Origin: a virus
DNA: 15,376 nucleotides
Virus genome (UHGV): UHGV-0041029
Reading direction: 5' to 3' (one strand)
The notes beneath the pieces are model-generated. The model saw only the letters and a program-made list of their open reading frames with translations, had not been told where the DNA came from and searched no databases. The position numbers and the translations under genes are program-made. Position 1 is the stretch's first letter; each line of letters opens with the position of its first letter. This document shows, piece after piece, positions 2,070 through 14,309 of this stretch.

Positions 2070-2086
2070 TTTTGTGGAGTAAGTTG

Positions 2087-2464
2087 ATGCGTGATATTCA
2101 GATGGTTCTTGAGCGTTGGGGGGCATGGGCGGCTAATAATCATGAAGATGTGACCTGGTCGTCCATTGCCGCCGGTTTTAAGGGATTAATTCCTTCAAAA
2201 GTAAGATCTCGTCCGCAATGCTGTGACGATGACGCGATGATCATTTGTGAATGTATGGCTCGCCTGAAAAAAAACAACAGCGATTTACATGATTTATTGG
2301 TGGACTATTATGTCGGCGGCATGACTTTTATGGCGCTTGCACGTAAGCATGGGCGATCTGATTGTTGGGTTGGCAGGATGCTCCAGAAAGCTGAGGGCGT
2401 AGTGGAGGGCATGCTGATGGTGTTGGATCTCCGATTGGAGATGGATGCTGATTGTTCGAAATAA
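2087..2464 (+). CDS. Putative late-gene antitermination protein Q-like (short Phage_antitermQ-type)
   Basis: 125 aa from the ATG at 2087, with GGAG 7 nt upstream; the track ORF starts at TTG 2072. Position directly downstream of DUF968 and upstream of a terminator and the lysis genes is the canonical Q slot. Cys cluster ([12 protein letters not shown]) and a helix-turn-helix-like C-terminus. Family assignment is by recollection only. Confidence 0.55.
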
Positions 2465-2562: not shown

Positions 2563-2593
2563 AGCCAGCCTCCCCAAAGGCTGGTTTTTTTCT
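2563..2593 (+). terminator. Rho-independent terminator downstream of the Q-like gene (candidate tR'-like)
   Basis: Stem ccagcc (2565-2570), loop tccccaaa, stem ggctgg (2579-2584), then a run of 8 T. Lies between the convergent Q-like and lipocalin genes. The - strand reading lacks a U tract, so it acts mainly on + strand transcripts. Confidence 0.65.
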
Positions 2594-2619: not shown

Positions 2620-3144
2620 TTATTGTTTAACCCATAATAGTTCATTGACATTGAATCCCAACTTTTGAGCGGTACGCACATAGTCTGCTTTTACATTATC
2701 TGGAATAGTTTGGGTCCTTGCCAGAATCCATAGGTATTCTCTGTTCGGACCACTGATAAGAGCATACTTATACTCATCATCCAGCTTGATTACATTATAA
2801 CCACCATAGAAGGGGCCAAAAAACGAAACTTTCAACGCTGCAGTTTTAGTATCTCCAGTAAAGTATGCTTTACCTTCGCTCTCGCTCCATTTGTTTTTCG
2901 TTGGATCGTATCCACGGTTAAGTACGCGAATCCCTCCGTCGTTCCGTTTTTCATAAGTAGCGCTGATCTGTTCCAGACCACGTTCGAACCAGTTCTCGAG
3001 GCGAGCTATTTCATACCATTTTCCGAGGTAGCGGTTGGCGTCAAAATTTGTAATCGGCTGCACACCTTTAGGTGGTGTCGGGGCCTTACATGCTATAAGA
3101 GTGAAAGAGAGTGCAATGCCAGTCAACACAGGCCATAACTTCAT
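2620..3144 (-). CDS. blc: Bacterial lipocalin Blc-like outer-membrane lipoprotein
   Basis: 174 aa. N-terminal signal with lipobox (FTLIAC-K). Lipocalin motifs shared with E. coli Blc: NFDANRYLGKWYEIAR, GKAYFTG, AALKVSFFGPFYGGYNVI, YLWILART. AGGA lies 8 nt upstream of the ATG on the - strand. Confidence 0.8.
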   Translation of the reverse strand: MKLWPVLTGIALSFTLIACKAPTPPKGVQPITNFDANRYLGKWYEIARLENWFERGLEQISATYEKRNDGGIRVLNRGYDPTKNKWSESEGKAYFTGDTKTAALKVSFFGPFYGGYNVIKLDDEYKYALISGPNREYLWILARTQTIPDNVKADYVRTAQKLGFNVNELLWVKQ

Positions 3145-3336
3145 AATAAATCCTGTACTTTTGATAGTTGAGAGTAAGTATGAAAGATAGATGAGTACGA
3201 CCGATCACTTAAAGAACTTTCCTACTATATTAGGAATAGTCAATAACAGAAAAATTGTCAGTGATGAAGCCAGAAAGGCAATTTAGTCCGTGCACTACAA
3301 AGTTTATGTGTTAATGAATTAGTCAAGGGGGAGGAA

Positions 3337-4296
3337 ATGATAAAAAAACCTGTGATTGGGATCAGCGGTTGTTTGGGCGGTTCTGCTGTTCGTTTTGATG
3401 GTGGTCACAAAAGAGATGACTTTTTAATGGACAAATTAGTGGAATGGGTAACATTCAGACCAGTATGTCCGGAAATGGCTATAGGGCTGCCAGTTCCGCG
3501 TCCTGCTCTACGACTTGTGCGCTCGAAGCAAGGAAATATACGGATGTGTTTCAGCCACGACCAGAATGAGGATGTGACAGAGAGAATGACAGAGTTTAGT
3601 CGTTCTTATATGGACAAATTAAAGGATGTATCGGGGTTTGTGGTTTGTGCTAAATCTCCCAGCTGTGGCATGGAGCGCGTGCGTGTCTATGATGAAAATG
3701 GTAATCGAGGTCGTAAAGATGGAGTGGGACTATTTACGAGCACTTTGATGGAAAAGTTTTCCTGGCTACCGGTTGAAGAGGATGGGCGATTACATGATCC
3801 AGTGCTTCGTGAGAATTTTATTGAAAGAGTTTTTGCTTTGCATGAGCTCAATCACCTTTACAAGGAGAAATTATCAAGAAGAGAGTTATTAGCTTTTCAT
3901 AGTCGTTATAAGCTTCAGTTGTTGGCGCATAGCCAGGCAGGCTATAAAGATATGGGACCATTTGTGGCTGCAATACACGAGTGGGCGGACCTTGAATCAT
4001 ACTTTGAGGTGTATCGTGATAATCTGATGGCGATTCTCAAAAAACCAGCATCACGTAAAAATCACACGAATGTGCTGATGCATATACAGGGGTATTTTAG
4101 TAATTACTTAAGTACACGCCAGCGTAAAGAGTTGAGCGAGGTTATACTTAACTATCGCTTTGGCACATTGCCTCTTCTTGCGCCGTTGACTCTGCTGAAG
4201 CATTATCTGGGTGAGTATCCTAATGATTACTTGCTTACACAGAATTACTTCGATCCCTATCCGGAAGAACTGGCTCTAAGACTGATGGTGAATTAA
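3337..4296 (+). CDS. DUF523 (TudS-like thio-nucleobase desulfidase domain) fused to DUF1722 (YbgA-like); RudS-like putative tRNA 4-thiouridine desulfidase
   Basis: 319 aa, strong RBS gggggagg before the ATG. N-terminal half has Cys in the pattern expected for the TudS [4Fe-4S] ligands (GISGC at 12, PVCPE at 44, VVCAKSPSCG at 104/110). C-terminal half resembles YbgA/DUF1722. Domain calls are by recollection. Confidence 0.65.
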   Translation: MIKKPVIGISGCLGGSAVRFDGGHKRDDFLMDKLVEWVTFRPVCPEMAIGLPVPRPALRLVRSKQGNIRMCFSHDQNEDVTERMTEFSRSYMDKLKDVSGFVVCAKSPSCGMERVRVYDENGNRGRKDGVGLFTSTLMEKFSWLPVEEDGRLHDPVLRENFIERVFALHELNHLYKEKLSRRELLAFHSRYKLQLLAHSQAGYKDMGPFVAAIHEWADLESYFEVYRDNLMAILKKPASRKNHTNVLMHIQGYFSNYLSTRQRKELSEVILNYRFGTLPLLAPLTLLKHYLGEYPNDYLLTQNYFDPYPEELALRLMVN

Positions 4297-4702
4297 CTGT
4301 ATGCGATATCATCTGAAAGTGATGAGTTCCTGTATGCAGGATATTTACAATCGTAAAAACTACGCTATGATGCTCATAGTATCAGTTTTTATAAAAATCC
4401 TGTTCACGCTAAAGAAAACATTGAGATGCAATTTAATGTTGGTAAACATACCAGCCCCAAACGATTTTATTCAATCTGTTTTTATATGAAGATATTTCAA
4501 GTGAATATTAAGAGCATATAATATTATTATTGCACGCAGCTATTATAATATAACAGATTAGTTTAATGATTTGTTTTTTGTGAGTTAAACACATGGTTTT
4601 ATAGTTGTGATGCAATGAGATTTTCCTTATTGTTGAACTGGCGAATATTGATTTTCCACCTATACTTACCTGGTGTAACCCCAATGATATCAGGTGGATA
4701 AT

Positions 4703-5416
4703 ATGCCATACATATGTTCTATCATTTTGGTGTTGAACTCGTTTGGTGTCCGAATTGGTAAAGAAGATATTTTGTTTAAAAAAGGAAATGCTGTCCTCAT
4801 TGAATACAATTTAAAAGATCTTTTTTCGTCAAATACAGATCATCTAATGATCGTAGATGTTGAGGAGAAAACAGTTAATGATTTCTTTAAAAACTACACA
4901 CTCTCACCTTTTTCTGTAAGAAGGTTTTATCCGTCATACTTGATAGTAGAATGTGAAGATTTTTCATTGTTAAAGAACTTGGTTGCATGCTTGAATTGTG
5001 ATAGCAAAACCGTGGATGTAGTTAGAAATCAAATATCACTTGCATGTCTTGCTGTCTTATCTTCAGAGAAAATAGTGCAAAGTTTTTTGTTCGGAAGTCT
5101 TAATAGCTTAGGTTGTAAAGTTAAGGCTATTATTCACTCGGATATCTCAGCGTCATGGAGACTTTGTGATATATCTTCAAGATTATATATGAGCGAGAGT
5201 TTGTTAAAAAGAAAATTAAAAGACGAAGGATTATCGTTTAGTAAATTAATTCTTGAAGAACGAATGATGATGGCGCAAAGATTATTGATCTACAGTAACC
5301 ATACTGTCGGCAAGGTGGCGGGAATATGCGGGTATGACAATGCATCATATTTTGTAAGTGTTTTTAGAGGATATTTTGGTGTGCCTCCGCACCAATATTT
5401 ATCAAGATTTTCTTAG
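4703..5416 (+). CDS. AraC/XylS-family transcriptional regulator, GadX/AppY/YdeO-like
   Basis: C-terminal double-HTH AraC signature (WRLCDISSRLYMSESLLKRKLKDEGLSFSKLI ... GYDNASYFVSVFRGYFGVPPHQY). Gene and upstream 400 bp are visibly AT-rich. Start is probably the ATG at 4703 (aggtgg upstream); the track ORF starts at GTG 4694. Confidence 0.8.
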   Translation: MPYICSIILVLNSFGVRIGKEDILFKKGNAVLIEYNLKDLFSSNTDHLMIVDVEEKTVNDFFKNYTLSPFSVRRFYPSYLIVECEDFSLLKNLVACLNCDSKTVDVVRNQISLACLAVLSSEKIVQSFLFGSLNSLGCKVKAIIHSDISASWRLCDISSRLYMSESLLKRKLKDEGLSFSKLILEERMMMAQRLLIYSNHTVGKVAGICGYDNASYFVSVFRGYFGVPPHQYLSRFS

Positions 5417-5482: not shown

Positions 5483-5516
5483 CTACGCCAGAATAATTGC
5501 TGGCGTTTTTCTTTTT
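5483..5516 (+). terminator. Rho-independent terminator after the AraC-family gene
   Basis: Stem acgccag (5485-5491), loop aataattg, stem ctggcgt (5500-5506), followed by tttttcttttt. Confidence 0.6.
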
Positions 5517-5606
5517 GAATAGATGTTCGGGCCTTACGCTAATGTAACTTCTTTCCTTCTTCGAACCAAACCGTGTACACCATCCGTTATCTGCGGAGGT
5601 GAGGCT

Positions 5607-5822
5607 ATGAAATCCATGGATAAGTTAACAACGGGCATCGCCTACAGCACCTCTGCAGGCAGTGCTGGCTACTGGTTTTTACAGTTGCTCGATAAAGTCA
5701 CGCCCTCACAGTGGGCGGCAATAGGTGTATTGGGTAGTCTGGTATTTGGCATGCTGACGTATCTGACAAATCTTTATTTCAAGATTAAAGAAGACAGGCG
5801 TAAGGCTGCGAGAGGAGAGTAA
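5607..5822 (+). CDS. essQ: Class II holin / pinholin (phage 21 S21-like) with dual-start motif
   Basis: 71 aa beginning MKSMDK (Met1 and Met4, the S21 antiholin/holin dual start), with ggaggtgagg RBS. Two TM segments and a basic C-terminus ([13 protein letters not shown]). The track ORF at 5523 is an in-frame N-terminal extension without RBS support. Confidence 0.85.
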
Positions 5823-7162: not shown

Positions 7163-7407
7163 ATTAATATTAAATCGGATTATTTTTAGCGCTGAATGTG
7201 AAATTTAAATAAAAAGGACTCTTCCATGAGTCAAAATCCTTGAAATCTTAAGGGTAAGATAAAAGGTCATTAGACAGAATGACACGTTTTATTAATAAAT
7301 AAAGCTATTGTTTCATTCGTGTGTTTTTCTTTACAAAAGTAATCCTTGCTATGGTTGGTTAATCATGCGTTAATGGTGTTCTGGTTTGTTACAAAATTAT
7401 CTGAAGC

Positions 7408-7430
7408 AGTCATTGTTATAATTTTATTAT
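7408..7430 (+). promoter_or_regulatory. Candidate extended -10 promoter (TGnTATAAT) for the cold-shock gene with long 5' UTR
   Basis: tgttataat at 7414-7422 inside an AT-rich leader about 100 nt before the cspI-like start. CspA-family genes typically have long structured 5' UTRs. No convincing -35 seen. Confidence 0.3.
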
Positions 7431-7522
7431 TTGTACCTCTTGAGATTTCCTTGTTGGTTTTTCTCTCTGATATTTTTTTTCGGACCATTCTGCCCAAGGG
7501 CTAACTTCTTCAAAAGGTAATA

Positions 7523-7738
7523 ATGATGTCTAACAAAATGACTGGTTTAGTGAAATGGTTTAACCCTGAAAAAGGTTTTGGTTTCATCACGCCGAAAGAT
7601 GGTAGCAAAGATGTGTTTGTGCATTTCTCAGCTATTCAGAGCAACGATTTCAAAACGTTAACTGAGAATCAGGAAGTCGAATTTGGTATTGAGAACGGAC
7701 CTAAAGGCCCTGCAGCTGTTCATGTAGTGGCACTTTGA
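7523..7738 (+). CDS. cspI: CspA-family cold-shock protein
   Basis: [23 protein letters not shown]...VFVHFSAIQ carries the RNP1/RNP2 cold-shock domain motifs. ATGATG start, so the true start may be 7526 giving 70 aa. Symbol given from Qin-like context (followed by ynfN-like and gnsB-like genes); paralogue identity is not certain. Confidence 0.85.
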
Positions 7739-7942
7739 GGTAGAAAATATTACAAACCATATTCACTTTAGATGCCCGTGTTGCCATGGTTCTCAGTATA
7801 GAACATCATCTTTTGATGTTTCTGACAGAAATCCTTTCGGGGCAAAATGTATCTTTTGTAAATCAATGATGATTACATTTGATAATATTTCACAATACTT
7901 AAATGTTAGCCATCTGTCGTTAGATTTAAGAAAGTGAAAATG

Positions 7943-13876: not shown

Positions 13877-14309
13877 TCCAGCTGGCTTCGTGGCTGTTTT
13901 CAACAGTGATGAGTCATCGTGGCATCTCGTTGAAGATCATCGGGGTAAAACGGTTTATGACGTGGCTTCCGGCGACGCGTTATTTATTTCTGAACTCGGC
14001 TCATTACCGGAAAATGTCACCTGGTTATCCCCGGAAGGGGAGTTTCAGAAGTGGAACGGCACAGCCTGGGTGAAAGATGCAGAAGCAGAAAAACTATTCC
14101 GGATCCGGGAGGCGGAAGAAACAAAAAACAGCCTGATGCAGGCAGCGAATGAGCATATTGCGCCACTTCAGGATGCTGTAGATCTGGAAATCGCAACGGA
14201 GGAAGAAAACTCGTTGCTGGAAGCCTGGAAAAAGTATCGGGTGTTGCTGAACCGTGTTAATACAACAACTGCACCGGATATTGAATGGCCAGTAGCACCT
14301 ATAGGGTAA
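13875..14309 (+). pseudogene. C-terminal fragment of tail fibre assembly protein (Tfa family)
   Basis: [67 protein letters not shown]... matches Tfa proteins (TfaQ/TfaE-like). Homology starts abruptly at the gpJ junction, so the N-terminal 50-60 residues are missing. An in-frame GTG/ATG could still allow a truncated product. Confidence 0.75.

Follow-up and report, generated by a model that had tools for sequence, protein, structure and literature searches.

The stretch of DNA analysed here, 15,376 nucleotides of the UHGV virus genome UHGV-0041029 (the window, taken at its full length), carries an intact gene, rudS, whose product is very likely a RudS-type desulfidase of 4-thiouridine in tRNA (s4U8), encoded in a lambdoid moron cassette of low guanine-plus-cytosine (GC) content and with a proposed role in lysogenic conversion. 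The evidence obtained from the window consists of the domain architecture, residue conservation, the N-terminal fold, purifying selection and identity to RudS_vir, the homologue from Escherichia phage 1H12; the chemistry and the in vivo drop in s4U are taken from the literature. A preliminary description of the gene had proposed a RudS/TudS-like desulfidase, and its domains, conserved residues, TudS-like fold and 92% identity to RudS_vir all bear this out. The open reading frame (ORF) is RudS, a member of an already characterised family, so that the earlier identification was right and not new: the family, the mechanism of the enzyme and a phage copy nearly identical to this one have all been published, and the identification as such adds no new biology.

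Architecture and conserved residues of the rudS product

The gene starts with ATG, comprises 319 codons and spans exactly positions 3337-4296 of the + strand without interruption. The features of the gene are as follows.

3325..3334, + strand: purine-rich Shine-Dalgarno region (AAGGGGGAGG) just 5' of the rudS ATG (sequence reading)
3337..4296, + strand: rudS coding sequence, 319 amino acids, a TudS-DUF1722 fusion (ORF, Pfam, RudS_vir identity, PHROG 3275)
3355..3783, + strand: TudS/DUF523 catalytic domain, amino acids 7-149, including Cys12, Cys44, Cys110, Glu46, Arg55, Ser107 and Ser109 (Pfam, phmmer, alignment, Foldseek)
3910..4263, + strand: DUF1722 domain, amino acids 192-309 (Pfam, NCBIfam YbgA, AlphaFold2 model)

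The proposed fusion of DUF523 and DUF1722 was recovered, as both Pfam profiles were matched over their full length with E-values of about 1e-40. PF04463 (2-thiour_desulf, equivalent to DUF523/TudS) covered amino acids 7-149 (profile positions 1-141 of 141, E=5.5e-40, 137 bits vs a cut-off of 34.7), and PF08349 (DUF1722) covered amino acids 192-309 (1-117 of 117, E=7.2e-40, 136 bits vs a cut-off of 22.5). The all-helical DUF1722 domain was assigned to tRNA binding in the RudS paper (PMC11417400). With 319 amino acids and a full DUF1722 domain, the protein is therefore not a stand-alone TudS. Nor is it YbgA, because the NCBIfam YbgA model NF007549 scored 189.6 bits, below its equivalog cut-off of 237, and the match was confined to the C-terminal half (amino acids 161-315, model positions 10-164 of 169). 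PHROG 3275 matched the product over its full length with 743 bits and is labelled 'unknown function' in PHROGs; the RefSeq name, 'YbgA family protein', describes the product too narrowly.

The rudS product shares 292 of its 319 residues (92%) with gp66 of phage 1H12 (H3V29_gp66), without gaps and without a change at any key residue. This protein is the 'RudS_vir' of Jamontas et al. (Nucleic Acids Research, 2024), with conserved Cys12, Cys44 and Cys110; its gene was synthesised and expressed in Escherichia coli, where it lowered tRNA s4U as measured by high-performance liquid chromatography with tandem mass spectrometry (PMC11417400). Over-expression of any of six RudS proteins, RudS_vir included, cut E. 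coli tRNA s4U 4.7- to 26-fold; no such decrease came from stand-alone TudS or from E. coli YbgA, and Cys mutants of RudS were inactive (PMC11417400). The window protein and RudS_vir are alike in length (319 amino acids), in their key residues and in the surrounding cassette (Q, blc on the opposite strand, rudS, an AraC-like gene and a holin gene). They differ by 27 substitutions, their AraC-like neighbours are 77% identical, and the window gene belongs to a Qin-like prophage that is defective and occupies the ydfJ site, whereas 1H12 is a viable Jouyvirus/lambda-like phage.

We then examined conservation in an alignment of the product with 140 full-length relatives, which represent clusters formed at 50% identity and are each 35-56% identical to it. 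The product has Cys residues at positions 12, 44, 71, 104 and 110. The cysteines at positions 12, 44 and 110 recur in 138, 138 and 136 of the 140 relatives, respectively, and the catalytic columns are similarly conserved (Glu46 in 139, Ser107 in 139, Ser109 in 133 and Arg55 in 138), as is the tRNA-binding candidate Arg19 (138). Cys104 is Cys in just 10 relatives, the column being mostly Lys or Met, and the four most frequent residues in the column of Cys71 (Val, Ile, Leu and Arg) do not include Cys. A phmmer comparison with TudS (6Z92) aligned Cys12, Cys44 and Cys110 with TudS Cys10, Cys43 and Cys104, so that it is Cys110, within the SPSCG motif, that pairs with Cys104 of TudS. Four [4Fe-4S] cysteines (12, 44, 104 and 110) had been suggested beforehand; three of them are conserved across the family, but Cys104, judged from the alignment, is not a cluster ligand.

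The same alignment connects the window protein to residues studied in RudS_KT (Pseudomonas putida PP_0741). Two representatives (P0131 and P0139) bear C17, C49, E51, R60, S111, S113, C114 and R244 of the RudS_KT numbering in the matching columns, and the mutationally validated residues of RudS_KT are therefore linked to those of the rudS product. In this correspondence, C17/C49/C114 equal C12/C44/C110, E51 equals E46, R60 equals R55, S111/S113 equal S107/S109, R24 equals R19 and S243/R244 equal S239/R240. The two proteins are unlike in that identity is approximately 40-45% and that Tyr25 and Asn26 of RudS_KT are Phe20 and Asp21 in the window protein, both common family variants. Indeed, Phe20 (Y in 64 and F in 58 relatives), Asp21 (D in 104, N in 35), Ser239 (T in 75, S in 40) and Arg240 (80) are all common family residues at the putative tRNA-binding columns of RudS_KT.

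An AlphaFold2 model made from a 104-sequence alignment had a mean predicted local distance difference test score of 95.8 and a predicted template modelling score of 0.92, with an all-helical DUF1722 half. In a Foldseek search of the PDB, the TudS entries 6Z92, 6Z93, 6Z96 and 6ZW9 were matched with probability 1.00, a target-normalised template modelling score of 0.70-0.74 and a root-mean-square deviation of 3.3-3.7 Å over approximately 158 columns. No non-TudS match in that search had an E-value below 0.2, and the DUF1722 half was without a solved counterpart. The superposition on TudS that had been put forward as a check therefore gave a match between the predicted N-terminal half and TudS entries, which were the sole significant PDB matches. 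TudS (6Z92) and the window protein are alike in fold, in the three-Cys [4Fe-4S] site and in the catalytic Glu and Ser-x-Ser residues; they are unlike in that TudS is a single domain of approximately 150-166 amino acids acting on free thiouracil or 4-thio-UMP, whereas the window protein adds DUF1722. E. coli YbgA (b0707), on the other hand, is a stand-alone DUF1722 protein that matches the C-terminal half but lacks a catalytic domain and leaves s4U unaffected (PMC11417400).

The rudS product thus has every hallmark of RudS in sequence and predicted structure, and its activity is predicted from the 92%-identical orthologue. In the proposed mechanism, Cys12, Cys44 and Cys110 would hold a [4Fe-4S] cluster whose fourth iron would bind the thiocarbonyl sulfur of s4U, Glu46, Ser107, Ser109 and Arg55 would catalyse the replacement of sulfur by oxygen, yielding uridine, and the helical DUF1722 domain would dock the tRNA.

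The nature of the substrate deserves comment, as the enzyme might act, in the manner of TudS, mainly in salvage or detoxification of free 4-thiouracil, 4-thiouridine or 4-thio-UMP released by tRNA turnover, with tRNA as a secondary substrate. RudS_vir gave a uracil auxotroph on 4-thiouracil the shortest lag of all RudS proteins, and its tRNA desulfidation was comparatively low for its protein level (PMC11417400). Moreover, the catalytic domain has the TudS fold, and stand-alone TudS recycles 4-thio-UMP (PMC10611767). Nevertheless, growth was not supported by any RudS protein, RudS_vir included, in the way that it was by TudS, and tRNA s4U fell with each of them (PMC11417400). The DUF1722 domain and the putative tRNA-binding residues Arg19, Ser239 and Arg240 have also been retained under selection. 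We consider a primarily salvage function improbable.

The moron cassette and its prophage

The gene had been described as prophage-encoded, and the window genes are indeed those of a lambdoid prophage with near-identical Qin-like copies in E. coli chromosomes: DNA 99.7-99.9% identical to the window forms a Qin-like prophage between rspB and ydfJ. The region is 91% identical in nucleotide sequence to that of phage 1H12 (NC_049947). The order of genes in the window is hokD/rem, a DUF968 gene, Q, blc (- strand), rudS, an AraC-family gene, a P21-type holin gene, a DUF1327 gene, a lysozyme gene, an Rz-like gene, cspI, a terminase gene and fragments of tail genes. The features that delimit and fill the slot around rudS are the following.

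2072..2464, + strand: antiterminator Q, the upstream edge of the moron slot (Pfam Phage_antitermQ, E=8e-51; RefSeq annotation of near-identical loci)
2563..2586, + strand: intrinsic-terminator-like hairpin and T-run, approximately 100 nt 3' of Q (terminator scan)
2620..3144, - strand: blc-like outer-membrane lipocalin lipoprotein gene, divergent from rudS (Pfam Lipocalin_2; NCBIfam Blc subfamily, 310.7 bits, above the cut-off of 267)
3219..3236, no strand: 18-bp near-perfect palindrome with halves TTCCTACTA and TATTAGGAA in the blc-rudS spacer, a possible operator (repeat search)
4694..5416, + strand: AraC-family (YdeO/GadX-like) regulator gene, the third cassette gene, 31-35% GC (Pfam HTH_18/HTH_AraC)
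5485..5506, + strand: second terminator-like hairpin, 3' of the AraC-like gene and 5' of the holin gene (terminator scan)
5523..5822, + strand: holin gene of the P21 S type (RefSeq start at approximately 5607), the downstream edge of the moron slot (Pfam Phage_holin_2_1; essD annotation in near-identical loci)

The preliminary description had put rudS next to the lysis genes. The gene does lie inside the lambdoid Q-to-holin slot, but the AraC-family gene (4694-5416) separates it from the holin gene (approximately 5607-5822). The order Q(+), blc(-), rudS(+), AraC-like(+), holin(+) was found in essentially all of the 80 IMG/VR loci that make up our proviral sample and also in phage 1H12. The cassette occurs in at least two backbones, one Qin-like (with DUF968 and DUF1327 genes) and one lambda/DLP12-like (with ninB...rusA-ylcG-Q and essD-rrrD-rzpD). 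Its GC content is 31-45%, vs approximately 50% in the flanking phage genes.

In lambdoid phages, the slot from Q to the holin gene is a site of morons, such as stx in the Shiga toxin (Stx) phages and cspB and cspF in the Qin prophage of K-12. The window cassette is like them in occupying this slot, downstream of the late promoter and terminator, in its low GC content and in being cargo that the phage can dispense with. Unlike theirs, the cargo in the window is an eraser of a tRNA modification together with a lipocalin and a regulator. The hairpin at 2563-2586 lies where the late operon would be expected to have its tR' and would correspond to it. The palindrome at 3219-3236 is identical in phage 1H12 and may be an operator. 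For the AraC-like gene, the best NCBIfam matches were YdeO, GadX and HilD, all below their cut-offs, and PHROG 1450 was matched as well; the product is 77% identical to gp67 of phage 1H12, and it may be kin to Psr/PatE, the prophage-encoded regulators of acid resistance and the type III secretion system in enterohaemorrhagic E. coli.

The prophage in the window is defective. Between 10186 and 14309, the large terminase subunit of 577 amino acids is cut in its nuclease domain (123 of 294 profile positions), and directly 3' of it follow a C-terminal fragment of the tape-measure gene, a gpM-like minor tail gene, a gpL fragment (64 of 206), a gpJ fragment with a single FNIII-A domain and a gene for tail-fibre assembly. 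Of genes for the portal, capsid and tail tube, none is left among the annotated genes of the window.

Two Rfam families were matched in the window, both away from rudS, and no tRNA gene or Rfam family was found near it. The match to the cspA thermoregulator (7368-7784, + strand, 110 bits, E=6.7e-28) takes in the cspI-like cold-shock gene at 7523-7738, both its 5' leader and its coding region, downstream of the lysis genes. A full-length IS009 (RF02111) match of 212 bits lies at 14071-14269 (+ strand), within the tail-fibre assembly gene at 13890-14309.

Selection on rudS and its likely role

Comparison of rudS with the 1H12 allele gave a ratio of nonsynonymous to synonymous divergence (dN/dS) of 0.14, with dS of 0.29, and comparison with a second E. 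coli allele gave 0.27. The gene is under purifying selection. An intact rudS of 319 codons was present in 79 of the 80 proviral loci, and eight key residues (Cys12, Cys44, Cys110, Glu46, Arg55, Ser107, Ser109 and Arg19) were kept in all 79. Furthermore, rudS was found in 1136 of 5426 complete E. coli genomes (21%), with at least 80% of the gene length present in 1064. By nucleotide identity, these alleles fell into classes of at least 99% (407 genomes), 95-99% (619 genomes) and 90-95% (110 genomes). Disrupted copies also exist. In Nico21(DE3), a derivative of BL21(DE3), the Q-blc-rudS cassette is present and rudS is broken by the insertion sequence IS3 after 147 bp, just past codon 49 (NZ_CP053600.1, 4001-4147), and in strain YSP8-1 rudS is disrupted by an IS1 insertion. 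BL21(DE3) was the strain background for the s4U measurements in the RudS paper (PMC11417400).

These data bear on the simplest alternative, namely that rudS is a functionless passenger, a decaying remnant of a cryptic prophage or a mere 'YbgA family protein'. The window prophage is defective, copies broken by IS3 and IS1 are on record and the RefSeq label would agree with such a reading. Nevertheless, the near-universal integrity of the ORF in the proviral loci with its key residues kept, the dN/dS values of 0.14-0.27, the 1064 genomes and the YbgA score below the equivalog cut-off over the C-terminal half alone all speak against it. The passenger explanation has largely been refuted already by the conservation data, and we regard it as very improbable.

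According to the RudS paper, cross-linking between s4U8 and C13 drives the stringent response, and over-expression of RudS_KT shortens the growth delay of E. coli under ultraviolet A (UVA) light (PMC11417400). We consider lysogenic conversion the most likely role of rudS. The prophage would supply an s4U eraser to E. coli, whose chromosome has just the DUF1722 half (YbgA), and the eraser would lower near-ultraviolet (near-UV) cross-linking of tRNA and hence the growth delay and stringent response. That rudS has stayed intact although the prophage is dead speaks for a host benefit. Since rudS lies downstream of pR'/tR', induction would also bring about its transcription along with that of the late genes; Q-modified polymerase would traverse blc (in antisense), then rudS and the AraC-like gene, before reaching the lysis genes, as it does for stx in Stx phages.

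This late transcription leads to a second possible role, within the lytic cycle. Here rudS would be read from pR' by the Q-antiterminated polymerase together with the lysis genes, again as Stx is in Stx phages, and s4U would be stripped from the tRNA pool after induction by sunlight or UV, sparing late protein synthesis the cross-linking and the response mediated by guanosine tetraphosphate (ppGpp). The gene is co-oriented with Q and the lysis genes, it is downstream of a terminator-like hairpin where tR' is expected, its position is the same in 80 of 80 proviral loci and in the viable phages 1H12 and IdasGreatGrand, and no strong promoter of its own was detected. However, an enzyme made late would act after much of the translation to be protected, and no repair of previously cross-linked tRNA by RudS is known. 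Moreover, rudS is intact and under purifying selection in prophages that are unable to make particles, and no LexA box or other UV-linked element accompanies it. A lytic role is weaker than lysogenic conversion, since it fits the position of the gene but not its retention in dead prophages, and we hold it to be doubtful.

Several points weigh against lysogenic conversion by a tRNA s4U eraser. The window allele differs from RudS_vir at 27 residues, and its activity is predicted from that of the orthologue. The modest tRNA desulfidation of RudS_vir for its protein level and its short lag on free 4-thiouracil (PMC11417400), described above, count here too. In the 192-bp spacer between blc and rudS (3145-3336), no sigma-70-like promoter reached the scan threshold, and promoter-like sites in total were as many as expected from shuffled sequence. 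Low-GC morons are often silenced by H-NS. The argument from retention in a defective prophage, while favouring a benefit to the host, is indirect. Finally, the spacer has no LexA box, the nearest match being inside coding sequence, and no MerR/LitR or photolyase gene was found in the window or in the near-identical annotated loci. Such genes are typical of the context of chromosomal RudS and do not define the family; RudS_KT, for example, is in a light-inducible LitR/photolyase operon (PMC11417400), whereas the window gene has no such partners.

The link to UV, the SOS response and prophage induction that had been suggested earlier therefore found no support in the sequence, given the missing LexA box, the missing MerR/LitR and photolyase genes and the defective state of the prophage. 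A LexA/SOS box upstream of rudS was ruled out as a candidate: the motif CTGT-N8-ACAG with one mismatch occurred seven times in the window vs 4.7 expected, which is no excess over chance, and none of these sites is in the spacer. In the literature collection searched, we found no paper tying RudS or DUF1722 to prophage biology beyond the single test of RudS_vir in 2024, and a paper on orf6/orf10 of the avian pathogenic E. coli phage phiv142-3 proved unrelated.

Origin of the blc-rudS pair

The nearest non-phage relatives of the rudS product are the chromosomal RudS proteins of Citrobacter, Kluyvera, Klebsiella, Enterobacter, Leclercia and Pectobacterium (66-76% identical). Of 62 enterobacterial loci, each representing a species, 41 have a Blc homologue (67-79% identical to that of the window) encoded upstream of rudS and on the other strand. 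In Citrobacter sedlakii and Citrobacter sp. JGM124, blc and rudS are immediate neighbours, which is also the arrangement in the phage. The divergent blc/rudS pair is an ancestral arrangement of enterobacterial (Enterobacteriaceae) chromosomes. Given the adjacency in Citrobacter chromosomes, the phage probably took blc and rudS together from an enterobacterial chromosome.

Other chromosomal loci have further neighbours. In Enterobacter cloacae, a gene for a MerR/MlrA-type regulator and a transthyretin-like gene lie between blc and rudS, and the MerR neighbour was also remarked upon in the RudS paper (PMC11417400). In Citrobacter braakii, rudS is in a cluster with genes for a short-chain dehydrogenase, an amine oxidase, DUF1365 and a cyclopropane-fatty-acid synthase; a 175-amino-acid unannotated gene upstream of it was considered as a lipocalin and rejected, as it had no BLASTP match to the window Blc. 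Chromosomal RudS proteins of Enterobacterales (RudS_ST/ORF319, STM1389, of Salmonella and that of Enterobacter cloacae) are thus like the window protein in length and architecture and, in many cases, in having blc upstream on the opposite strand. Unlike them, the phage cassette has neither the MerR/MlrA and transthyretin-like neighbours nor the C. braakii cluster and carries an AraC-family gene there. The MerR/MlrA-type regulator was probably lost from the captured pair, with the AraC-family gene in the phage cassette in its stead. The 18-bp palindrome is specific to the phage cassette and absent from the chromosomal blc-rudS spacers of C. sedlakii and Citrobacter sp. JGM124. A conserved operator shared by the phage cassette and the chromosomal blc-rudS loci was also rejected, as the spacers of these two genomes fail to align with that of the phage.

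Two further occurrences were recorded. Two short contigs binned as 'Candidatus Nanosynbacter sp.' (JARKOR010000151.1 and JARKOR010000135.1) carry Q, blc, rudS, AraC-like and holin genes at 85-98% protein identity, and they are almost certainly bin contamination. Three Salmonella enterica contigs (L006-L008) have a 73%-identical RudS beside a 311-amino-acid PF01171 gene that adjoins a DEAD-box helicase gene; by position alone, these neighbours are putatively ttcA (tRNA 2-thiocytidine synthetase) and dbpA. The same contigs also contain an integrase fragment and a DUF1367 phage gene, and this Salmonella copy of RudS therefore appears to be a prophage remnant as well.

Significance for E. coli

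Both the RudS paper of 2024 (PMC11417400) and a 2026 review state that E. coli lacks RudS. Contrary to this, 21% of complete E. coli genomes have a prophage rudS, and the presence or absence of the gene may provide a simple genetic basis for strain-dependent s4U content and UVA physiology in this species. The RefSeq and PHROGs annotations of the rudS product could be upgraded.

We tentatively suggest, as a possibility rather than an expectation, that the blc-rudS-AraC cassette is a lysogenic-conversion module that alters the response of about one fifth of E. coli strains to near-UV light and sunlight and, in addition, protects late translation of the phage after sunlight-triggered induction. 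If so, tRNA s4U would be lower in carrier strains, their UVA growth delay shorter and their ppGpp burst smaller. The reprogramming of a tRNA modification of the host by a temperate phage, as a fitness trait, would be a first, and the textbook statement that E. coli is without RudS would be overturned.

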